This document shows positions 7,394-43,018 of a stretch of 64,000 bases of DNA, one piece after another. How positions within the stretch are numbered: the first letter of the stretch is position 1; every line of letters begins with the position of its first letter. A program made the position numbers and the translations under genes. This DNA comes from Candidatus Bipolaricaulota bacterium. Lineage in GTDB: Bacteria > Patescibacteriota > Patescibacteriia > UBA11705 > DATKZF01. The notes beneath the pieces were generated by a model. That model had not been told where the DNA came from, did not search any database, and worked only from the letters and a program-made list of their open reading frames with translations. The stretch lies in NCBI GenBank assembly GCA_035528115.1, contig DATKZF010000001.1, positions 92,508 to 156,507 of the forward strand, written 5' to 3'.

Positions 7394-8556
7394 AGATCGC
7401 CATTATCAGTAATTTATTCGCTCCTTATCAGCGTGGCGGCGCGGAAAAAATCGCCAAAGCGCAAGCGGAATTTCTGGTGAAAAATCATGAGGTTTTTGTG
7501 ATTTCTTCAAAGCCTGACGGCTCTGAAATTTCAGTGGAGCAAAAAAACGAATTAAAAATTTATCGTCTTTCTTCGGCCAACATATATTATTATCTCGACG
7601 ATTTTAGGCATGGCGTTTTGGCCAGACTGATTTGGCATTATTTAGATCAAATCAATTTGGTCAATTTTTTCAGGGTCAGGAAAATCCTAAAAAAAGAAAA
7701 ACCGGATTTGGTTGTCTCGCACAATTTAATGGGCTTGGGGTTTTTAATTCCGCTGGTTTTGAAAAAATACCAATGGACTCATGTTTTGCACGATGTTCAG
7801 CTGGCCGCGCCGAGTGGTTTGATTATCAAGGGCGAGGAAAATACTTTTTCAGTGGCGGGCTGGCCGGTAAAAATATATTCTTGGTTGAATAAGAGGCTTT
7901 TCAATTCGCCGACCAAAGTCGTGTCGCCATCAAATTGGCTGCTTGATTTTTATTTGGTCAAAGGATTTTTTAAAAAATCCAAAACGCAGGTTTTGCCCAA
8001 TCCGATTTTATTTGAAATTAAAAATTCTACGAAAGAAAAATCGTCATCTTTGAAATTGCTTTTTGTCGGACAAATCGAGGAGCACAAAGGCATATTATTT
8101 TTAATAAACGCTTTGAAGGAATCAAAACGAAATTTTATTTTAAGCATAGCCGGTTCCGGTTCGAAAGAATCCGAGGTTAAGTCTCTGCTCGGCGGAGATG
8201 AAAGATTTAAGTATTTGGGAAAGTTGGCTCCGATGGAAATCAAAGACTTGATAGCGACGTCTGATTTTTTGGTCGTTCCGTCTCTTTGTTATGAAAATTC
8301 TCCGACCGTGATTTATGAAGCGTTCAGTCAAGGAATGCCGGTTATCGCCTCGAAGATCGGCGGCATTGGAGAATTGGTGAAAGAAGGGGAGACGGGTTTT
8401 GTGTTTGAAGCGGGTGATCGAGACCAGCTTATTCTGGCGGTTCAAAAAGCCATGGCAACGCAAAATTACGGCCAACTCTCCCAAAATTGTCTGAGCACGG
8501 TAGGTGATTTTAATTCGAAACAATATTTGGAGAAATTATTGGACGTGTTTCAATAA
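7390..8556 (+). CDS. Glycosyltransferase family 4 (GT-B)
   Basis: ENSPTVIYEAFSQGMPVIASKIGG motif. The ATG at 7390 overlaps the upstream stop in an ATGA arrangement, and the product starts MKIAIISNLF. Confidence 0.85.
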   Translation: MKIAIISNLFAPYQRGGAEKIAKAQAEFLVKNHEVFVISSKPDGSEISVEQKNELKIYRLSSANIYYYLDDFRHGVLARLIWHYLDQINLVNFFRVRKILKKEKPDLVVSHNLMGLGFLIPLVLKKYQWTHVLHDVQLAAPSGLIIKGEENTFSVAGWPVKIYSWLNKRLFNSPTKVVSPSNWLLDFYLVKGFFKKSKTQVLPNPILFEIKNSTKEKSSSLKLLFVGQIEEHKGILFLINALKESKRNFILSIAGSGSKESEVKSLLGGDERFKYLGKLAPMEIKDLIATSDFLVVPSLCYENSPTVIYEAFSQGMPVIASKIGGIGELVKEGETGFVFEAGDRDQLILAVQKAMATQNYGQLSQNCLSTVGDFNSKQYLEKLLDVFQ

Positions 8557-8639
8557 TAGTAATAGACAGCCGGCTGGGAGCCAGCATCGCATAAAAACAT
8601 ACCACCTAACCCGGCAGAGAGCTTGACTCTCTGCTCTTA

Positions 8640-8672
8640 AGTTGTCATATTTCAATAATAATGATATAATCA
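8640..8672 (+). promoter_or_regulatory. Putative promoter of tRNA-Trp
   Basis: TTGTCA followed by TGATATAAT (an extended -10), about 20 nt upstream of the tRNA. Confidence 0.4.
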
Positions 8673-8693
8673 TAACGATTTCGATTTGATTAC

Positions 8694-8767
8694 GGGGGCG
8701 TCGTATAGTGGTAGTACAACGGTCTCCAAAACCGTTTGCGTGGGTTCGATTCCTACCGCCCCTGCCA
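8694..8767 (+). tRNA. trnW: tRNA-Trp (anticodon CCA)
   Basis: Cloverleaf: acceptor GGGGGCG/CGCCCCT, anticodon loop CTCCAAA, T-arm GTGGGTTCGATTCCTAC, with an encoded 3' CCA. Confidence 0.85.
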
Positions 8768-8802
8768 CGTCGCTCGCCACAGTCGTTCGTGAACGACGTG
8801 GC
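8764..8802 (+). terminator. Hairpin overlapping the tRNA 3' end (processing or termination structure)
   Basis: GCCACGTCG...CGACGTGGC, a 9-10 bp stem with an inner GTCGTT/GAACGAC sub-palindrome. No T-run follows. Confidence 0.35.
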
Positions 8803-8915
8803 TCGCGAGCAATATTTCAGCCAAATGCTGATTTTTTTTGTTTATCAACAAATTGGTTCGTTTGTTGCAAGGAGCGTGTTATAATAGCAATGATTTTAAT
8901 TAATTTTCAAATATT

Positions 8916-9887
8916 ATGAAAAAATCCAATCTAAAATGGATCTTGCTCGCGGTCGCGGTTATCATCGCCGCCGCCTTGATTTATTTTTTGGCGATCAAGG
9001 GAGTTTATAAAAAAGAAATTTACGAAAATTCGCGCTATCAGTACAGCTTGAATTATCCCGCGGATTGGACTTTGGGAGCGGAGGAGACAAATAACGCGGG
9101 CAGGGAAATATTTTCACCGGATAAAAAGGTTTATTGCTATGTTTACGGTTTTGAAAATGCGTTGGTAAACGACAACGGCGAGCCGCAGACGATCGATGAA
9201 TTTTCTGATTGGCTGGTCACGGCTTCCAAAGAGTTATCGACCGAGGAAGAGCCGATAAATCTGTTGACCAGAGAAGCGACAAAGCTCGACGGTTGGCCGG
9301 CAATGAAAATGTCGTTTGACGAAGGCGCGATTGTCAGAGAGGCTGTTTATACTCTGGGCAAAAGCACCGGATTGGGATTCTTTTGCGTCTATCCGACCCG
9401 AGATGATCAAACGCAATACGGAAAAGATTTCGAAAAGATGTATAAAAGTATTGCTATCAAATCAGATTTGGACGGCGCGGGAACAAACGCCATCAGCTGC
9501 GCCAATCTGCTCGGCGGCGCGACCACCCCGTTAAAGGGCAAGGAAGTTTTTTACGATACCGCCTACACCGAGGTTACCATGACCGGCCGCGAGGACTGGG
9601 ATCAAGATCGTTTGCCCTTGCAGGTGGTACAGCTGGAGCCGGCCGGATATGAGTGTTATCCGATGCCGTTTGAATTCTCGGATTCTTCGCCGGACGACGT
9701 GAACGCCCAGCCCGAAGTCACCAAAGTGGAATGGACGTGTGAATTGCCGTATGAGGAGTGGGGATACGTGGCGTTCGATGATGAAAATGAAAAAGCCGCG
9801 CAGGAGAAAGAAGGACTTGTTTGCAAGCAAGACAACTGCATGGATGAAAATTCCGCGCTGACGTCAATTTGGTTTTGTTCCAAATAA
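8916..9887 (+). CDS. Hypothetical secreted/membrane-anchored protein
   Basis: Signal-anchor N-terminus, Cys-rich C-terminal region, no recognisable motif. Confidence 0.6.
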   Translation: MKKSNLKWILLAVAVIIAAALIYFLAIKGVYKKEIYENSRYQYSLNYPADWTLGAEETNNAGREIFSPDKKVYCYVYGFENALVNDNGEPQTIDEFSDWLVTASKELSTEEEPINLLTREATKLDGWPAMKMSFDEGAIVREAVYTLGKSTGLGFFCVYPTRDDQTQYGKDFEKMYKSIAIKSDLDGAGTNAISCANLLGGATTPLKGKEVFYDTAYTEVTMTGREDWDQDRLPLQVVQLEPAGYECYPMPFEFSDSSPDDVNAQPEVTKVEWTCELPYEEWGYVAFDDENEKAAQEKEGLVCKQDNCMDENSALTSIWFCSK

Positions 9888-9890
9888 AAT

Positions 9891-9950
9891 GTTACGAATT
9901 ACAATATTCTTAAGCATAAAGCTACAAATGGATGTAATTTGTAAGAATAT
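9891..9950 (+). repeat. MITE-like repeat, short form (R1)
   Basis: GTTACGAATTACAA, then attcttaagcataaagctacaa, then gatgtaatttgtaagaatat. Lies between two convergent genes. Confidence 0.6.
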
Positions 9951-10973
<1,023 letters not shown>

Positions 10974-11022
10974 AAACCAAATTGTAACATTAAATTGTTT
11001 TTCGGTCAATTGAGGCGAGATT

Positions 11023-11050
11023 TGAGTTTTGGGAGGGGAAAGGGTAAAAT
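11023..11050. repeat. 28-bp direct repeat, left copy (tgagttttgggaggggaaagggtaaaat)
   Basis: Perfect 28/28 match to 16178..16205. The flanking bases differ. Confidence 0.8.
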
Positions 11051-11230
11051 ATGGTTGTGCGAGATACATGTTTTACTTTTGGGGCTATCGTCAGAGCTTT
11101 TAAAAGAAAGTGGATTTTTTTCTTTTTTATAGAGGGGATATAAGGAATTTTCACGCTACGCTCCAAAACTTTATTTTATAATTAGAGCTAAGGCGCTATA
11201 ATACAACAGAAATAAATTCGAAATACGCTT

Positions 11231-12895
11231 ATGCCTACATTAAATTGGATTGGAAAAGACGCAGTAATAAACCACGACAAAGAGGTTCCTTTTCGATTAC
11301 TCAAAAAAGTTAAGTCCGCTTCCGTAGGCAATTCTCAAAATCTCATTTTGCATGGCGACAATCTACATGCCTTGAAGGCTTTAATGCCATATTACACAGG
11401 TAAAATTGAGTGTATATATATTGATCCACCGTACAACACTGGGTCTGAAAAGTGGGTTTATAATGATAAAGTAAATTCACCCAAAATTAGAAGGTGGTTA
11501 AAAAAGATAGTAGATAGAGATGATCTTTGCAAACACGACAAATGGCTTTGCATGTTGTATCCAAGGTTGAAGCTTCTAAAAGATTTACTAAGTCAAGACG
11601 GTATTATTTTTATTAGCATTGACGATAATGAGTTCGCTCAACTTAAATTACTTTGTGATGAAATTTTTGGAGAATCAAATTTTATTTCGATGTTATCAAT
11701 TGAAAACAATCCTAAAGGTAGAAAAAATTCGGCTTTTATTTCTGTCAGTAATGAATATTGTTTAATATATGCCAAGGATAAAAATATTAGCTATTTTGTA
11801 GAAAATATTCCTAAAGGAGCAAAAGATTTAGCGCTTGATGAAAATGGAGTTTATGTACACAACAGTGGGAAAAGAGTGCTTGTAGGAGAAAACAAATTTA
11901 ATCCCGTTGTTGAAAATTTTGAATCGAGTAAACACTATAGCGTCTATTACAACAAATCCAAAAATGAAATAATCACCGTGAAAGAGAGATCTATTCATGA
12001 TAAAAATACAGATTTACTAAATAAAGGTTACAAAAGATATTATTCATATTTTGAAGATAAATTTGTTTTAAATACCTATACAGCGTCAAAAATTAAGCAA
12101 CTTTTTGAAAATGATGCTCTGGATTTTAAAAACGGAAAAATATATGAAAAGAACTTTAGTACAAAAATTAGGATTAAAAGCCTAGTTACCAATAGTAAAT
12201 ATGTAGCAGTTATAGACAACGAAAAAAAGGAATACCAAATAGATGTTAAAACTACTTCGGCAGGTACTGAATTAAAAAATCTTTTTGGCGCTAAAAAAAT
12301 CCCCTTCGATAACCCAAAAAATATAGGCCTGATTAAACTATTAGTTACTTTGTTTGAAAGAAAGGACATAACAATCCTTGATTCTTTTGCTGGCTCCGGC
12401 ACAACAGGTCACGCCGTTTTGGACTTAAACAAAGAAGATGAAGGAAATCGCAAATTCATCCTCGTTGAAATGGAGGACAATGTTGCCAAAGATATTACGG
12501 CGGAACGAGTAAAACGAGCGATCAAAAAATACGATTATAAAGACGGCTTCGAATATTGCGAACTCAGCAAACCACTTTTTGATGAAGAAGGCCAAATTGA
12601 GGACACTTGCGACTTTGACCAATTCGCAACCTACATTTACTTTACTGAAACGCAAACCAACATAGACCCTGCCAATGTATCGGGAAATTTTATCGGCGAA
12701 TACGCAGAAACCGAGTATTATTTGATATACAAAGAGAAGGGCGAAAATGTATTGAGTAAATCTTTTCTGAAAAAATTACGAAAAACCGACGGTACAAAAA
12801 TAATTTACGCCGACAAATGCTTGCTTGATGAGGCAACACTTGAGAGCCACAACATCATCTTCAAACAAATTCCTTACGAAGTTAAAGTTTACTAA
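11231..12895 (+). CDS. mod: Type III restriction-modification methyltransferase (Mod, N6-adenine, beta-class)
   Basis: DPPYNTG (motif IV) lies upstream of FAGSGTTGHAV (motif I). A large target-recognition region sits between them. Confidence 0.9.
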   Translation: MPTLNWIGKDAVINHDKEVPFRLLKKVKSASVGNSQNLILHGDNLHALKALMPYYTGKIECIYIDPPYNTGSEKWVYNDKVNSPKIRRWLKKIVDRDDLCKHDKWLCMLYPRLKLLKDLLSQDGIIFISIDDNEFAQLKLLCDEIFGESNFISMLSIENNPKGRKNSAFISVSNEYCLIYAKDKNISYFVENIPKGAKDLALDENGVYVHNSGKRVLVGENKFNPVVENFESSKHYSVYYNKSKNEIITVKERSIHDKNTDLLNKGYKRYYSYFEDKFVLNTYTASKIKQLFENDALDFKNGKIYEKNFSTKIRIKSLVTNSKYVAVIDNEKKEYQIDVKTTSAGTELKNLFGAKKIPFDNPKNIGLIKLLVTLFERKDITILDSFAGSGTTGHAVLDLNKEDEGNRKFILVEMEDNVAKDITAERVKRAIKKYDYKDGFEYCELSKPLFDEEGQIEDTCDFDQFATYIYFTETQTNIDPANVSGNFIGEYAETEYYLIYKEKGENVLSKSFLKKLRKTDGTKIIYADKCLLDEATLESHNIIFKQIPYEVKVY

Positions 12896-12897
12896 TT

Positions 12898-15168
12898 ATG
12901 GAACTCAAAAAATATCAACAATCAGCGCTAGACAAGCTCAAAGCCTACCTCAAAGGCATAGAGGCCGTCGGGCCAAAATATGCTTTCATGGGTGAAACCG
13001 ACCGACCGTATCACGGCGACTTTTTCGGTGATGTGCCTTTCGTTTGTGTAAAAATCCCGACTGGCGGAGGAAAAACGCTTGTCGGCTGTCATGCTATCAA
13101 CGAAATCATGCGCTCTTTCCTCAAGCACAAAATGGATAGAGGAATTGTGATGTGGTTTGTGCCGTCCGAGGCTATCAAATCCCAAACACTCAAAAAATTT
13201 AAAGACCGCAACGACTGGCACAGGCAGGTTTTGGACGAGGCATTTCAAAACAGCGTGCGTATTTTTTCAAACGAGGAAGCATTGCGAATCAGAAAAGAGG
13301 ATGTTCAGGACAATCTTTGCATTATCATTTCCAGTTTGGAGGCTTTCCGAAAAGAAAAAACGCTCCAAAAGAAATACAAGGTTTATCAAGAAAATGGCGC
13401 ACTATTGAGCCATTTTGAAAATCTTGATGACCGAGACGACCTAGAAAAAGACGAGGAAGGCACAATTATTAATTCCCTCGCAAATGTCGTCCGCATGAGC
13501 AACCCGCTTGTGGTGATTGATGAAGGTCACAAAACAAAGACCGAGCTTTCAATGGATTTTCTCAATAGTCTGAATCCAAGTTTTATAATTGAATACACTG
13601 CAACACCACGCTCCGGCAGTAATATTTTAGTGGATATTTCCCCCGCTGAACTCAAAGACGAGCAGATGGTGAAAATTCCACTTGTACTTGAAAGCTCCGC
13701 CCAATGGCAAAACGCCGTTGCCCGCGGTCTTGAGAAGCGAGCCGAAATTGAAAAAGAAGGTAAGAAAAATACAGGCGAATATATCCGTCCAATTGCCCTA
13801 ATCCAAGCCCAGCCAAAAAGCAAAACGCAAAACAACGTAACTGTTGATCAAATCAAGGAATATTTACTTTCCGCCAAAATTTCCGAAGAAGAAATTGCGA
13901 TCAAAACATCCGACCGAAACGATTTAGAGGGCGTTGATTTATTTAGCAAGAAATGTAAAATCCGCTACATAATAACCGTTAGTGCGCTCGCCGAAGGATG
14001 GGACTGTTCTTTTGCCTATGTTCTCATTTCCGTTGCCAATGTCGGCGCAAAAATAGCCGTTGAACAGATCATCGGACGCATTATCCGTATGCCGTATGCC
14101 AAACGAAAGAAAAACGAGGCATTAAACCGCTCTTACATTTTCGCCTCCGCCAAAAACTTCAATGAGGCAGCCAGCAACATCATTTCAGGACTAGAAAGAA
14201 ACGGCTACAGCAAACTGGACTTGATCGGCGCTTCATCAAACGGCGATACCGCAAAAGACCCGAAAGAAGTAAACCGAGCCGTGAAAAAGAATTTTGCCGT
14301 TCCGATGATGAGCTTGGAGGATGAAAAACTGACCTTTGAAGAACTGATCGGCGAAGATTTTGAGCTGGCCAAACAAAACGCTGAGTTTGATTTTGAAATT
14401 CATTATGATAATGACGGCAGAGCGATTATCGATATTCAAGCCGACAAATGGATTAAGGGCGCTCAACAATTCTTAAAGCTCACCTATAAAGATAAAAACT
14501 TCTCAAAAAAGGAACTAGTGCAATGGTTAGACAAAAAGCTACGCTACACCCTCCTGGCTCAACCTGATAAAGTAAATTTTATTGATAACGCTTTGGAATA
14601 TCAACTAAAGAAAAAATCATTGATTGAATTGTCAGTTAATCGCTATGTTTTACTTAATAAGCTCGGCGAGGTAATAGATGGCATTTTGGAAGCACACAGT
14701 AAAACTCAGTTTGATAAAGCATTGTCTGCCAAAAAAATTACTGTTAAACCGTTTGATAAATATCCCGAGACAATTATTTTGGATCAGGAAATGCCTCAAG
14801 AATTCAACAAATCATACTATGAAAAAGTTGGTAAATTGAATAAAGAAGAATTGAATTTGATTGACCGGCTGGATTTAGAGACTTTACCGAACATTGATTT
14901 TTGGATACGCAATAGAGAAAAGACTGATCCGTTCTATATTATTGGTTGGAAGAAAAATAAATTTTATCCCGATTTTGTCGTCTATACAAAAAAAGGCAAT
15001 ATTATTGCGTTAGAGTGGAAAGGCGAAGATCGGGTTAGCAACAAGGATACAGAATACAAAGTTGATATTAGTAACAAATGGGCAGCACTCGCTAAGGGCA
15101 AACTGCATTTCTTCTTGGTTCATATTGGGAATATTGAAGATGTGTTGAACAGCCTAAGAGGACTTTAA
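12898..15168 (+). CDS. res: Type III restriction endonuclease Res subunit (SF2 helicase plus C-terminal PD-(D/E)xK)
   Basis: KIPTGGGKT Walker A and VIDEGHK (DEGH) helicase motifs. The C-terminal YPDFVV...IIALEWK is PD-ExK-like. The gene starts 3 nt after mod. Confidence 0.9.
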   Translation: MELKKYQQSALDKLKAYLKGIEAVGPKYAFMGETDRPYHGDFFGDVPFVCVKIPTGGGKTLVGCHAINEIMRSFLKHKMDRGIVMWFVPSEAIKSQTLKKFKDRNDWHRQVLDEAFQNSVRIFSNEEALRIRKEDVQDNLCIIISSLEAFRKEKTLQKKYKVYQENGALLSHFENLDDRDDLEKDEEGTIINSLANVVRMSNPLVVIDEGHKTKTELSMDFLNSLNPSFIIEYTATPRSGSNILVDISPAELKDEQMVKIPLVLESSAQWQNAVARGLEKRAEIEKEGKKNTGEYIRPIALIQAQPKSKTQNNVTVDQIKEYLLSAKISEEEIAIKTSDRNDLEGVDLFSKKCKIRYIITVSALAEGWDCSFAYVLISVANVGAKIAVEQIIGRIIRMPYAKRKKNEALNRSYIFASAKNFNEAASNIISGLERNGYSKLDLIGASSNGDTAKDPKEVNRAVKKNFAVPMMSLEDEKLTFEELIGEDFELAKQNAEFDFEIHYDNDGRAIIDIQADKWIKGAQQFLKLTYKDKNFSKKELVQWLDKKLRYTLLAQPDKVNFIDNALEYQLKKKSLIELSVNRYVLLNKLGEVIDGILEAHSKTQFDKALSAKKITVKPFDKYPETIILDQEMPQEFNKSYYEKVGKLNKEELNLIDRLDLETLPNIDFWIRNREKTDPFYIIGWKKNKFYPDFVVYTKKGNIIALEWKGEDRVSNKDTEYKVDISNKWAALAKGKLHFFLVHIGNIEDVLNSLRGL

Positions 15169-15214: not shown

Positions 15215-16114
15215 ATGAGTGAAGAATTTACTAAAATAACTATAGACGAATTAATCGGCCCACCTATAGATATTTCTAAACTTGATGTGAGTTCTAAGTC
15301 AGCTTTATCAAAAGCCGCATTTGATTTATATAGAGAAACTGCAATGGTTGCTGTATTGGCATCCCATTTATATGAGTCTTATCAGCCAGAAAGAAGTGCA
15401 TTACCACGTGATCAGGCAATAGGTATTGGCCTAATCGTGAGGATATCAAAATTTATGTCATCGGTTTTAGCACTTTTGTGTGACAAAGAAAGAGAGCACG
15501 GCGAAGTCATAATGAGTTTGAATAGGTGTATTATTGAATCAGCAATAAACTTAAAATTTTTTTGCGAAGAAGCATTAGAACTGGATTTTGAAGAATTTGT
15601 TAAATCAAGTCTTAAACCAGAAAAGGAGGCATATGATTCAATTCAGAAAAATATTAGCAAAAGAGGATCGACATTACCAATTGAAAAAAGAATGCTCAAC
15701 TCAATTAACCTAACCTTTCGTACTTCTGGGATAAAAGAAGTAAGCGAGCTTACATCGATTCCCAAAAGGAAGAATTACAAAGATATTCTTACTATAATGG
15801 GGATGGAGTCATTCTATCCGTTTTTCCAAGGAATTCCATCCCACGCTATACATGGCACTTGGGTGGATCTTATACTTCACCACTTAGAAAAAACAGATGA
15901 CGGTTTTAGGCCTAAACCAGAGCCTACTGTTACAGACGCACGTTTACTGTGTCCCATTAACCTCATAATTCTAACGGCCATACAATCTTATATCAAAAAA
16001 TATTTTATACATGATAGTGAAGTGTTTGTGGCTCTCGTGGATAGAATTAGTGGACTACTAGAACTTAATAATAAAGTTGATACTGCTCACGAAGAGAGCA
16101 TTTCCAATAAATAA
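15215..16114 (+). CDS. Hypothetical protein attached to the Type III R-M pair
   Basis: 299 aa, same AT-rich composition as mod/res. No motif I recognise; it sits inside the repeat-bounded island. Confidence 0.6.
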   Translation: MSEEFTKITIDELIGPPIDISKLDVSSKSALSKAAFDLYRETAMVAVLASHLYESYQPERSALPRDQAIGIGLIVRISKFMSSVLALLCDKEREHGEVIMSLNRCIIESAINLKFFCEEALELDFEEFVKSSLKPEKEAYDSIQKNISKRGSTLPIEKRMLNSINLTFRTSGIKEVSELTSIPKRKNYKDILTIMGMESFYPFFQGIPSHAIHGTWVDLILHHLEKTDDGFRPKPEPTVTDARLLCPINLIILTAIQSYIKKYFIHDSEVFVALVDRISGLLELNNKVDTAHEESISNK

Positions 16115-16122
16115 ATGGCTAC

Positions 16123-16146
16123 AGGGGGCATTCACCCCTTTTATTC
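16123..16146 (+). terminator. Weak intrinsic terminator
   Basis: GGGGG-cattca-CCCC followed by TTTTATT. Confidence 0.35.
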
Positions 16147-16177
16147 CCCTCTGCCCTCCGCCCAAAAGCTAAAAAAA

Positions 16178-16205
16178 TGAGTTTTGGGAGGGGAAAGGGT
16201 AAAAT
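16178..16205. repeat. 28-bp direct repeat, right copy
   Basis: Identical to 11023..11050. Confidence 0.8.
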
Positions 16206-39987: not shown

Positions 39988-41192
39988 AAAAATACGATAA
40001 AAATATTTCCACGATTTTGGGCGTAAATATTTCCCTCGATAATAAAAGCGAAATATTATTTAAGATCGGAGAATTTTTAAAATCAAAGACCGGGCATAAA
40101 ATTTATACACCTAATCCGGAAATCTGCTTGCTGGCGAACAGAGATCATAAATTCAAAAAATTGTTGAATTTTGCAGACATCAATATCGCGGATGGCTTCG
40201 GCCTTAAGGTTGGCGCGGCCATTTTGGGTCAAAAAATTCCCAATCGCCTGACCGGCGTGGATTTAACTTGGGATATCTTAAACATAGCCAGTCAAAACGG
40301 TTATCGAGTTATGCTGCTCGGCGGAGCCGGCAAGGTGGCCAAAACAGCGGCGAAAAACATTAAACAGCAACTGCCAAACATCAACATCGTGGGCGCGGGC
40401 GAGGGGATTGAAATAAAATATCAGCGCGGAAGCATTGCTTATGATATCAATAAAAACAATAAAGTCTTGGATTTTATAAATAAGGCTCAAGCAGATATTG
40501 TTTTCGTGGCTTTTGACGCGGCCAAGCAAGTTTATTGGATCGATCAAAATTTATTGAAGCTCAAAACCGTCAAACTGGCCATGGGAGTGGGTGGAACATT
40601 TGACTTTATGGCCGCCAAAGTAAAAAGGTCTCCAAGCTGGCTGAGAAAAATCGGTCTGGAATGGCTTTTCAGATTGCTGAAACAGCCCAAACGAATCAAA
40701 AGAATTCTAAACGCCGTAATTGTTTTTCCACTGATCTGCTTAAAATGGAGAATAGGCTGGCTCTGCAAATATAGACCGAATCTGCTCAACATTATCTACA
40801 ATAAAAACAATGAAATTTTATTGATGCTTAATCCCAGATTCAATTACTGGACATTGCCTCAAGGCGGGGTGGAAAAAAACGAGGATTTGCGCTCAGCGGG
40901 CAAAAGAGAATTGAATGAAGAATTGGGTTTGCCCGAAGATAAAATCGAATTGATAAAAATCCTGCCCGATGAATACAAGTATGACTGGCCCGACTGGGCG
41001 AGATTAAAACAGCCATACAAAGGCCAGAAACAAAAATTCGCGCAATGGAGATTTATGGGCGAGGAAAATGATTTCAAATTCAGGCGCTCGGATGAAGCTC
41101 AGAAAATACAGTGGGTCAAGAAAGAAAATATTTTCAAGGTGCTGGCCAAAGTGAGGCAAGAAACGATTAAAAAAATCTTTGATAAAATTTAA
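39984..41192 (+). CDS. Fusion protein: WecB/TagA/CpsF (GT26) glycosyltransferase plus C-terminal Nudix hydrolase
   Basis: N-terminal GT26-like domain. The C-terminus carries the Nudix box GGVEKNEDLRSAGKRELNEELGL. Confidence 0.7.
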   Translation: MKKYDKNISTILGVNISLDNKSEILFKIGEFLKSKTGHKIYTPNPEICLLANRDHKFKKLLNFADINIADGFGLKVGAAILGQKIPNRLTGVDLTWDILNIASQNGYRVMLLGGAGKVAKTAAKNIKQQLPNINIVGAGEGIEIKYQRGSIAYDINKNNKVLDFINKAQADIVFVAFDAAKQVYWIDQNLLKLKTVKLAMGVGGTFDFMAAKVKRSPSWLRKIGLEWLFRLLKQPKRIKRILNAVIVFPLICLKWRIGWLCKYRPNLLNIIYNKNNEILLMLNPRFNYWTLPQGGVEKNEDLRSAGKRELNEELGLPEDKIELIKILPDEYKYDWPDWARLKQPYKGQKQKFAQWRFMGEENDFKFRRSDEAQKIQWVKKENIFKVLAKVRQETIKKIFDKI

Positions 41193-41197
41193 AATTC

Positions 41198-41331
41198 GTT
41201 ACGAATTACAGTCATCTTTTAGGCTTTCAGGTTATTTGTTACAAATTACAATCTTCTCAGGCATAAAGCTATAAATGAACGTACTTCGCAACAACCGCAT
41301 AGAAGCTAACCGGAAGAATGTAATTTGTAAC
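41198..41331 (+). repeat. MITE-like repeat, 134-bp form (R7)
   Basis: GTTACGAATTACA at the 5' end and AATGTAATTTGTAAC at the 3' end, collinear with R2. It abuts the GC-rich islet. Confidence 0.7.
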
Positions 41332-41348
41332 TTTTTTAAAATACTGAA

Positions 41349-41378
41349 CCCGCGAAGAATGACCTCGCGGGTTTTTGG
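41349..41378. terminator. Bidirectional terminator
   Basis: ACCCGCGA-agaatgacc-TCGCGGGT followed by TTTTT. Confidence 0.5.
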
Positions 41379-41413
41379 GTAGGATTTGGGGGTGGGTGAG
41401 TTACCGGTGGGAA

Positions 41414-42733
41414 CTACTTGCCGCCGTTCACGAGCTTCAGGCGCACGCGGACGGAGCCGGAAGCGACCTCGGAAGCCGCGCGCTGGAGCTTTCGCTCGTT
41501 CGCGCGCTGGAAGCGATTCCACAGCCAGCTCAGCGTGGTGCTGAGAGGCTGAGCCTCCGCCTCAACCTCGATCCTGCTTCCATCGCGGAAGCGAGAATCC
41601 TTGAGGCCGGACTTTCTGGCCAGCGCCACGGCCATGGAGGCCTCGCTCGAGTGGAGGAGAACGACCCGATCCTTGTCCTTGACCTTGAAGGTCATGACGA
41701 GAATCGGGCAGACGTCCATGCCCGCAATGGCGTCCGGGTGAGGGCCGAAACCGGTCGGGAACAAGCCGCTTTCGACGCAGAAGGCAACGATCTCCTTCCA
41801 GTCGAACACCGGCCATTCCACCCGATCGCTCGGGTGTGCGAACCTCTCGGTCTCCGAGTTTTCGAAGACCTCCTTGAGCCGCCGCATGAGCTCGAACGGC
41901 TCGAAGTTCAGCGGGTCGCTCGACTCGAGGCGAGCGACCACCTTCGCCGTCTTCTCCTGACGCTTCTTGTCGCGGCCGGCCATGTGCTTGGCCAGCCGGA
42001 ACAGATCGGCCGCTCCGTCCTCGAGGCGGTCGAAGACCAGATCCTTTCGGACCTGGCAGATCGCCACCGCGTTCAAGCGGCCGAGGATGGCGAATCCGGG
42101 CCGTCCGGTCGCCCGCGACACGAGAGCGAAGTCGCGCTCGCTCTTGTCGAGCGCGAGCGCTTTGGCGCGCTCGGCCAACCTTTCGGGGTTGAGCTTGCCC
42201 TTGCCGACGATGTCGTCGCCGAGAGCCTCGGTCATGGCTTCGGCCGAGAGGAACTTCCCCTCGCCGGAAATAGCCGCCTTGACCTGCTCCTGCCGAGCGG
42301 CCCAGGCCAGAGGGTTGATGAGCGGTACGATCTGCCGCTGATCGATCTTGGCCTGACGGCTAATGCCCAGCCGTCGCGCCTCTTCCTTGTCGCGCGCGGC
42401 CAGCACCGCGGCCGCGCACTTGCGGTGGTAGATGTCGCCCTCGCCCTTGACAACGAAGGCTTCTGACACGGAGATGACACCTGTCATTTCCGCCTTCCGG
42501 CACACTCTGCAGTGCACCTTCAGCTTGTCTAGGGGGAGCGAGACCTTGCGGTCATCAACTCCCGACTTTATTAGGTGGGTGATCTGGTCCGGGCCGGAAA
42601 TGGTCGTCTTGCCTTCCTCGCCGATGAAGGTCACCGGCAGGATCTCGTTGTTCCCGTTCTTGACCGCCACGGTCGTGCCGTGGAATGCGATCACCTGGGC
42701 CACAGTCTTCAATTCCTTAGTCGCCATGATCAT
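41414..42733 (-). CDS. GC-rich 439-aa hypothetical protein (foreign-looking)
   Basis: Marked GC enrichment across 41340-42830 between AT-rich flanks. Composition is protein-like (K/E/A/R-rich), and AAGGAGC precedes an ATGATCATG start. The antisense ORF 41375..42466 looks like a GC-shadow ORF. Confidence 0.55.
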   Translation of the reverse strand: MIMATKELKTVAQVIAFHGTTVAVKNGNNEILPVTFIGEEGKTTISGPDQITHLIKSGVDDRKVSLPLDKLKVHCRVCRKAEMTGVISVSEAFVVKGEGDIYHRKCAAAVLAARDKEEARRLGISRQAKIDQRQIVPLINPLAWAARQEQVKAAISGEGKFLSAEAMTEALGDDIVGKGKLNPERLAERAKALALDKSERDFALVSRATGRPGFAILGRLNAVAICQVRKDLVFDRLEDGAADLFRLAKHMAGRDKKRQEKTAKVVARLESSDPLNFEPFELMRRLKEVFENSETERFAHPSDRVEWPVFDWKEIVAFCVESGLFPTGFGPHPDAIAGMDVCPILVMTFKVKDKDRVVLLHSSEASMAVALARKSGLKDSRFRDGSRIEVEAEAQPLSTTLSWLWNRFQRANERKLQRAASEVASGSVRVRLKLVNGGK

Positions 42734-42989
42734 GCTCCTTGCCCGACCTCGCGGGCTTTTCTGGGTGTTCTCGAATCTGGCCGATCTTGCGATCGGATTA
42801 CTCGCGCTTTAATGCTTGCTTAGCGGAACTTTTTGGCAATATACTAAATAATCGTTCGGCTTTTTCGCCGAATCGAACATTAAATAATATCACATTTTAC
42901 TCAAAAAGTCAATATAGTGCTTATTTTTAAGCTAATTTTAGCGAATTTTAAAAACATTTCATTTAATCAACCGATTTTAACAGCTAAAA

Positions 42990-43018
42990 TTGACAGCGGG
43001 GGATAGCTGGCTTATAAT
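42990..43018 (+). promoter_or_regulatory. Consensus sigma70 promoter TTGACA-N17-TATAAT for gltX
   Basis: ttgacagcgggggatagctggcttataat. Confidence 0.55.

Follow-up and report, generated by a model that had tools for sequence, protein, structure and literature searches.

What is the gene directly behind res doing in a mobile Type III R-M cassette? It could be a third part of the restriction enzyme, a guard or regulator of that enzyme, a passenger, or a defense gene in its own right. The question is raised by an open reading frame (ORF) of 299 aa in a stretch of 64,000 nucleotides from Candidatus Bipolaricaulota bacterium, the whole of which is referred to here as the window. An earlier note on this DNA had singled out the ORF as a candidate accessory defense component of an R-M island, with the proviso that homologues widespread outside defense contexts, or a clear housekeeping domain, would speak against it. 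The canonical Type III R-M enzyme consists of two subunits (EcoP15I-like Mod2Res). The gene product belongs to DUF5677 (PF18928), a family that to our knowledge is not part of the canonical enzyme and has been assigned neither a function nor a structure or mechanism. The reading favored here, to which we give an even chance, is that the gene is autonomous conflict- or defense-type cargo of a mobile Type III cassette, probably expressed by read-through from mod-res and coding for a protein with an enzyme-like site.

The gene product and its family

The 299-aa gene is real, conserved and a member of DUF5677, a family name already in use at NCBI, where the identical protein is listed as a 'DUF5677 domain-containing protein' of a Candidatus Bipolaricaulota MAG. 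The earlier note had seen no motif that it could place; that statement is superseded by a Pfam match to PF18928 whose score of 59.8 bits exceeds the cut-off of 27.1 (E 4.5e-16) and in which residues 68-230 cover profile positions 2-165 of 166. In an alignment the N-terminus is collinear with those of 48 homologues, and the start codon is therefore right. The gene begins 47 nt past the final base of res, which leaves an intergenic gap of 46 nt, and lies on the same strand as mod and res, exactly as had been noted. The claim that the protein lacks a transmembrane segment also holds: the highest 19-residue Kyte-Doolittle average, 1.84, falls on a core helix in the confident model of a soluble helical protein, and none of the averages delineates a convincing membrane-spanning segment, so that a reading as a membrane protein was rejected. 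No match to the protein was obtained in PADLOC, NCBIfam or PHROGs, and among the PADLOC-DB v2 models no family reached E <= 1 either with the window protein or with its homologue in locus L013.

When 1.84 billion cluster representatives were searched exhaustively with a profile, only 1,125 clusters (50% identity) related to DUF5677 were recovered at E <= 0.001; 406 of them reach E <= 1e-30, and nearly all are standalone proteins of ~300 aa. This full-length subfamily exceeds the Pfam core by ~65 aa at the N-terminal and ~70 aa at the C-terminal side. All 49 aligned homologues match DUF5677 alone in Pfam, and low-stringency scans of the same proteins revealed no second Pfam domain and no consistent second family. 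In a recurrent fusion of ~590 aa (P0201, P0242, P0246, P0251 and others) DUF5677 is preceded by an N-terminal domain of ~290 aa; N-terminal extensions of 80-300 aa (P0156, P0201, P0214 and others) match nothing in Pfam, and a 586-aa fusion modeled with AlphaFold reached a pLDDT of only 34. No source searched offers a functional name for members of the family.

Among 49 sequences that are 27-73% identical, R76, K79, E108, E136, S209, H210, H213, G214 and W216 are invariant, and the near-invariant positions of the alignment include N103, R104, E157, D218 and D241. The window protein shares the conserved residue set with diverse members of DUF5677. A distant fused branch of 590 aa retains R76, K79, R104, E108, E136, E157, H213, G214, W216 and D241, with H210 replaced by Asn in two of its proteins (P0262 and P0263). 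The structure model of the 299-aa protein has a pLDDT of 91 and is mostly alpha-helical, with the conserved Arg/Lys/Arg/Glu/Glu/His/Trp/Asp residues placed on successive helices. The invariant Arg, Lys, Glu, His and Trp residues suggest an enzyme site or a ligand pocket, the substrate of which would most plausibly bear a phosphate (nucleic acid or nucleotide), a guess drawn from residue chemistry and not from homology.

The earlier note had recommended Foldseek on a structure model. Against PDB and the viral structures of BFVD it gave only unspecific matches to helical bundles, GPCRs and BAR domains among them (E >= 0.13), and a profile search of the PDB sequences with DUF5677 returned nothing. 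Within the reach of these searches DUF5677 has no detectable characterized structural relative.

The repeat-bounded unit

That the gene resides in a repeat-bounded island, as had been claimed, is substantiated by a 28-nt direct repeat (TGAGTTTTGGGAGGGGAAAGGGTAAAAT), the two copies of which match perfectly and are the only ones in the 64-kb window, where 0 are expected by chance. The copies have sharp edges and unrelated flanks and bracket a unit of 5.2 kb that holds mod, res and the DUF5677 gene (Table 1) and in which no integrase or transposase was found. The DUF5677 gene is a physical part of the mobile mod-res unit and moves within the repeat-bounded unit. The metagenome collection contains no exact match to the 28-mer and no relative with an empty site; all contigs with the exact flanking cupin-like protein also have the island.

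Table 1. Features of the repeat-bounded unit and its edges, in window coordinates
Feature	Coordinates	Strand	Description
Left direct repeat	11023..11050	+	perfect, 28 nt; overlaps promoter-like TTGAGT-17-TAAAAT
Promoter-like site	11175..11202	+	TTTATA-16-TATAAT, 10/12; 29 nt upstream of mod, inside the island
Mod, Type III R-M methyltransferase	11231..12895	+	554 aa; PADLOC MTase_III PDLC03644, E 1.7e-138; Pfam N6_N4_Mtase
Res, Type III R-M restriction subunit	12898..15168	+	756 aa; PADLOC REase_III, E 3.5e-85; Pfam ResIII
DUF5677-family gene	15215..16114	+	intact ORF, ATG start, 299 aa, pI 5.7, 33.8 kDa
Terminator-like hairpin and T-run	16123..16139	+	consensus match, 5-bp stem; 9 nt past the stop codon
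Right-end motif	16126..16156	+	31 nt; 96.8% shared with L063; single copy in the window
Right direct repeat	16178..16205	+	perfect, 28 nt; 32 nt upstream of the cupin-like gene

No terminator-like site was found between res and the DUF5677 ORF. The weak terminator that the earlier note had placed behind the gene matches the consensus, but its hairpin does not exceed shuffled sequence in stability (z = 0.36). The claim of a shared AT-rich composition likewise stands in part. The GC content of the gene is 0.352 (GC3 0.273) and that of the whole island 0.368, compared with 0.425 and 0.415 in the flanks; however, res has a GC content of 0.407, and the cupin-like gene, which lies beyond the repeat, is AT-rich too (0.354), so that composition is only a soft argument for the origin of the island.

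On the left side, the RlmN-like radical-SAM ORF at 9951-11069 (-) is probably called too long, as its RlmN_N domain starts at residue 33; the left repeat would then fall in a 5' leader or promoter region and not in coding sequence. The sole Rfam/ARAGORN match in the window is a tRNA-Trp (CCA) gene at 8694-8767, overlapped by a probably spurious ORF (8686..8919); it lies ~2.3 kb away from the island and does not adjoin it. Elsewhere in the window, positions 41000-43000 have a GC content of 0.53-0.57 versus a mean of 0.41 and two overlapping long ORFs at 41375-42466 (+) and 41414-42733 (-); the stretch has no Rfam match and is thus not rRNA.

Related Type III cassettes and their third gene

The cassette was compared with 80 metagenome loci (L060-L139) whose Res proteins are 59-96% identical to that of the window and in 71 of which Mod is encoded upstream. 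Nucleotide similarity to the related cassettes starts at ~11154, near the promoter-like site, spans mod and res and ends at the res stop codon. It is interrupted in the central region of mod, at ~11690-12370, while both ends of mod and the whole of res are similar. This region is presumably the target-recognition domain, and the pattern is consistent with diversification of specificity.

Neither tblastn (E <= 1e-5) nor hmmsearch of every ORF of at least 50 aa (E <= 10) detected DUF5677 in any of the 80 loci. In 62 of them res is followed by sufficient sequence, and for these the upper 95% bound of DUF5677 carriage is ~5%. By its strand, the gap to res, the lack of an intervening terminator and its place inside a shared mobile unit the gene is situated as a dedicated Type III subunit would be, whereas the co-occurrence expected of such a subunit is seen in 0/80 loci. 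DUF5677 therefore does not form an integral part of the enzymes of this Type III R-M family, and the specific link to Type III res that had been implied is contradicted by the close relatives of the enzyme.

The space behind res is seldom empty: where at least 700 nt follow res (62 loci), a downstream ORF is present in 60 cases. It is co-oriented with res in 50 of these 60 (p = 8e-8), often after a gap of 0-41 nt. The third genes are nearly all different and fall into 7 small clusters and 45 singletons (examples are L077:6124-8619, L100:5212-6696 and L065:4480-5163). A Pfam census of 40 of them identified AAA_21, AAA_15 and SMC_N (3 members) and AAA_13 (2 members), together with DUF4435, DUF3644, NUDIX, an MNT-type nucleotidyltransferase, a serine recombinase and HTH proteins, and left many of the 40 genes without any match. 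The more general claim of the earlier note, that Abi-type factors often occur behind res, agrees with the prevailing co-orientation and with the presence of AbiEii/OLD/PARIS-type ATPases, DUF4435 and MNT-like nucleotidyltransferases.

One related locus, L063, encodes a Res protein 85% identical to that of the window, and its cargo comprises a 205-aa HTH protein and a 322-aa ORF. The 31-nt motif that follows the DUF5677 gene in the window and includes the terminator-like hairpin recurs there at L063:3923-3953; the contig of L063 stops just after it. The motif could be the right end of the cassette or a recombination site. The R-M family thus consists of a conserved mod-res pair and a swappable cargo slot, with a right end common to at least two members. 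It is possible that the variable slot behind res is a hotspot of accessory genes.

Neighbors of DUF5677 homologues

The 40 genome loci with DUF5677 that were inspected belong to Gammaproteobacteria, Patescibacteria, Acidobacteriota, Chloroflexota/Dehalococcoidia and Elusimicrobiota, and to one cyanobacterium and one methanogenic archaeon. Copies from Gammaproteobacteria and Patescibacteria are 54-58% identical to the window protein, which is from Bipolaricaulota, and such identity across phyla indicates horizontal spread. DUF5677 is rare, and its distribution over phyla is patchy; no gene accompanies it as a conserved partner, and it turns up repeatedly in defense islands and mobile elements. 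Four of the 40 genomic copies (L007, L011, L035 and L039) contain an in-frame stop or a frameshift as judged by tblastn, which is consistent with a dispensable accessory gene.

Fourteen contexts of close homologues (47-73% identity) were inspected. They include a split Type IIG R-M system; a ParB-methylase with an 880-aa methylase and a serine recombinase; a Type IIS R-M system (REase_II, E 4e-122) 163 nt downstream; Shedu with PDC-M49A/B, the latter ending 6 nt upstream; PDC-S26; Prim-Pol and DnaG/NERD/SocA elements; a C-protein-like HTH; and, in several cases, ordinary genes. An R-M or methylase gene lies within three genes in 4 of the 14 contexts, which corresponds to p values of 9e-6 to 4e-3 at a background of 1-5% that was assumed and not measured. 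The contig of homologue P0016 (L044:1-16900) is a perfect inverted duplication with two convergent DUF5677 copies (8001-8900 (+) and 9519-10418 (-)) at the center of a Prim-Pol element; it reflects either faulty assembly or a linear element of the hairpin type.

Outside a block of genes in Dehalococcoidia described below, no neighboring family recurs and 286 neighbors are singletons. In the 29 loci that lack this block, the two neighbors on either side are mostly unrelated housekeeping genes, with DNA methylases accounting for 2 of 119. ORFs of ~200 aa are located just upstream of several close homologues, but they are mutually unrelated and hence do not represent a conserved partner. No relative of DUF5677 was found in 50,697 phage genomes, and plasmid carriage is limited to two cases, both Vibrio IncC plasmids with a protein of 26% identity encoded next to traN. 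As to the proviso about homologues outside defense, the close homologues include several near defense genes, whereas the 29 loci have mainly housekeeping neighbors.

These data bear on the possibility that the gene is a hitchhiker, neutral or selfish, that was carried along in a variable region and serves a purpose other than defense, such as maintenance of a mobile element, anti-defense or a niche enzyme activity. The heterogeneous contexts with their singleton neighbor families, the many homologues amid housekeeping genes, the copies beside the tra genes of a conjugative plasmid and in Prim-Pol elements, and the absence of the family from PADLOC would all be expected of such a gene. A full-text search for DUF5677 yielded one 2025 preprint (PMC12632615) and one Salmonella machine-learning study. 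According to the preprint, DUF5677 is enriched with, and predicted to be co-transcribed with, defense-linked serine recombinases in Bacillota. One DUF5677 ORF was among nine candidates constitutively expressed in E. faecalis and exposed to six phages; it is not among the five ORFs that are reported to have conferred protection (PMC12632615), a negative outcome that also fits a hitchhiker. The Salmonella study lists DUF5677 among accessory or mobile-type domains. Arguing against a mere passenger are the position of the gene inside the repeat-bounded R-M unit and the co-oriented placement of DUF5677 genes directly behind defense genes, namely behind PDC-M49B and res, as well as the retention of the Dehalococcoidia block in 7 contexts over 54-76% divergence. 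Absence from the phage genomes argues against a role in phage anti-defense. On balance a hitchhiker is a possible but doubtful explanation.

A further homologue touches on regulation. In L003, a contig of 1.4 kb, a 78-aa HTH_3 ORF (185-421) that resembles a C protein ends 14 nt before a DUF5677 gene whose product is 58% identical to the window protein. This arrangement, and the location of the window gene at the end of an R-M operon, could be taken to mean that DUF5677 regulates or modulates the adjacent R-M system in the style of a C protein, by delaying restriction at establishment or by tuning Res. However, Pfam reveals no DNA-binding domain in DUF5677, and a protein of 299 aa with enzyme-like invariant residues is unlike a controller. 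In addition, the sister cassettes function without DUF5677 (0/80) and most homologues have no R-M neighbor. Regulation of the adjacent system is very improbable, and a C-protein-like controller was rejected because DUF5677 contains no HTH.

A Res-Mod-DUF5677-UvrD block in Dehalococcoidia

Eight Dehalococcoidia genomes (L013, L017, L019, L022, L027, L030, L032 and L038) share a block of co-oriented, tightly spaced genes that includes DUF5677. In L013 (3519-12983), where the block adjoins ZacA (DUF6361), the order is ResIII helicase, PIN, Type III methyltransferase, DUF5677 and UvrD/GajB-like helicase. The ResIII helicase comprises ~1,050-1,180 aa and the methyltransferase 930-990 aa (PDLC03632, E = 0); the PIN domain protein was confirmed in 4 of the 8 genomes. 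Seven different flanking contexts were observed for the block, and the mutual identity of its DUF5677 copies is only 54-76%, which indicates that the block is maintained and mobile as a unit. In L030 the block is decayed; L019 and L027 each have Mod divided over two ORFs. The Mod and Res proteins of the block are only remotely related to their counterparts in the window (E 1e-16 and 1e-4), and the gene order is different; hence the block represents a second, separate Type III-like association of DUF5677. The block may be an undescribed composite defense system. The check on co-occurrence with Type III res that the earlier note had advised therefore has two outcomes, a negative one among the 80 close relatives of Res and a positive one in the 8 genomes with the Type III-like block.

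The embedding of DUF5677, co-oriented, in an R-M operon both in the window and in the Dehalococcoidia block raises the scenario of an R-M guardian. According to this scenario DUF5677 is inhibited by Res-Mod or monitors it, and fires abortive infection when a phage blocks restriction. Such a function is an established concept for PrrC and PARIS (PMC12707154), and ATPase domains of the PARIS/PrrC type (AAA_15, AAA_21 and AAA_13) as well as DUF4435 occupy the same slot in the sister cassettes. Other close homologues adjoin Type IIG and Type IIS R-M systems. This breadth is also what speaks against a guardian: the neighboring systems belong to unrelated R-M types or are not R-M systems at all, and the surroundings of most homologues contain no R-M gene, which makes a specific physical partnership of DUF5677 unlikely. 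Nor is DUF5677 carried by any of the 80 closely related Res cassettes, and it has neither an NTPase nor a recognized effector domain. We consider a guardian function to be quite unlikely.

Also improbable, if somewhat less so, is the most far-reaching interpretation, in which DUF5677 is an enzyme with a possibly new fold that serves as a portable second-line effector of R-M and other defense cassettes, the Dehalococcoidia block a new composite system and the slot behind res a hotspot of discovery.

Proposed course of events

Guilt by association is what makes a role in defense plausible. The designation as an accessory defense component holds insofar as the family recurs in defense and mobile contexts; it does not extend to a dedicated partnership with the R-M system, given its absence from all related cassettes. 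For the favored reading, autonomous cargo of a mobile Type III cassette, the following course of events is proposed. A compact cassette composed of promoter, mod, res, cargo and right-end motif would have been acquired horizontally and inserted between the rlmN-like and the cupin-like gene with duplication of 28 bp. The DUF5677 gene would have been gained either together with mod-res or into the cargo slot of the cassette. Its spacing suggests that it is transcribed by read-through from mod-res. The protein would act autonomously, as a second line beside the R-M system and not as a part of the restriction enzyme, and its conserved residues would, to judge from their chemistry, form a catalytic or ligand-binding pocket.

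If DUF5677 is a true defense or guardian effector, it adds a family without a solved structural relative to the defense repertoire. If it is mere cargo, a mobile R-M unit has simply taken along a DUF gene, and the finding is an ordinary one. Of more immediate use is the third-gene slot behind the widespread Type III mod-res pair, which provides a ready list of R-M-linked accessory candidates. Most worth pursuing are this hypervariable slot and the conserved five-gene block of the Dehalococcoidia.

Comparison with known systems

The nearest conceptual precedent for a DUF5677 gene in an R-M locus is the guardian concept. A 2025 review (PMC12707154) describes PARIS and PrrC, the latter situated within a Type IC locus, as 'RM guardian systems'. 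Like the PrrC gene of EcoprrI and like PARIS, the DUF5677 gene lies physically within an R-M locus as an accessory gene, and PARIS- or PrrC-type ATPase domains are encoded in its slot in sister cassettes. By contrast, DUF5677 has no ABC-ATPase domain, Walker A motif, HEPN or Toprim effector, displays no similarity to these proteins in sequence or fold and is not tied to one R-M type. Membership in the PrrC/RloC or PARIS type was rejected, as there is no AAA/ABC match in Pfam and no GxxxxGK[ST] in the sequence.

With the HEPN Abi RNases AbiV and AbiD/F, DUF5677 has in common that it is small, soluble and all-alpha, contains an invariant His and occurs in defense islands and mobile elements. It differs from them in that no conserved Arg precedes H210 or H213 by 4-6 residues; position 206 is Gly in the window protein and G, E, S or R across the family. 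Comparison of the model with PDB by Foldseek gave no match to any solved HEPN structure. A HEPN protein, one of the options put forward earlier for a gene behind res, was rejected, since a conserved Rx4-6H motif is absent and PADLOC and Pfam reveal no HEPN/Abi match.

The mod and res genes of the window form a bona fide Type III pair, like those of EcoP15I-like Mod2Res enzymes. DUF5677, unlike a subunit of the canonical Type III R-M enzyme, is missing from 80 close relatives of the window's own system. The closest likeness is to DUF5677 (PF18928) itself: the window protein matches nearly the whole profile, and its homologues carry that domain alone.
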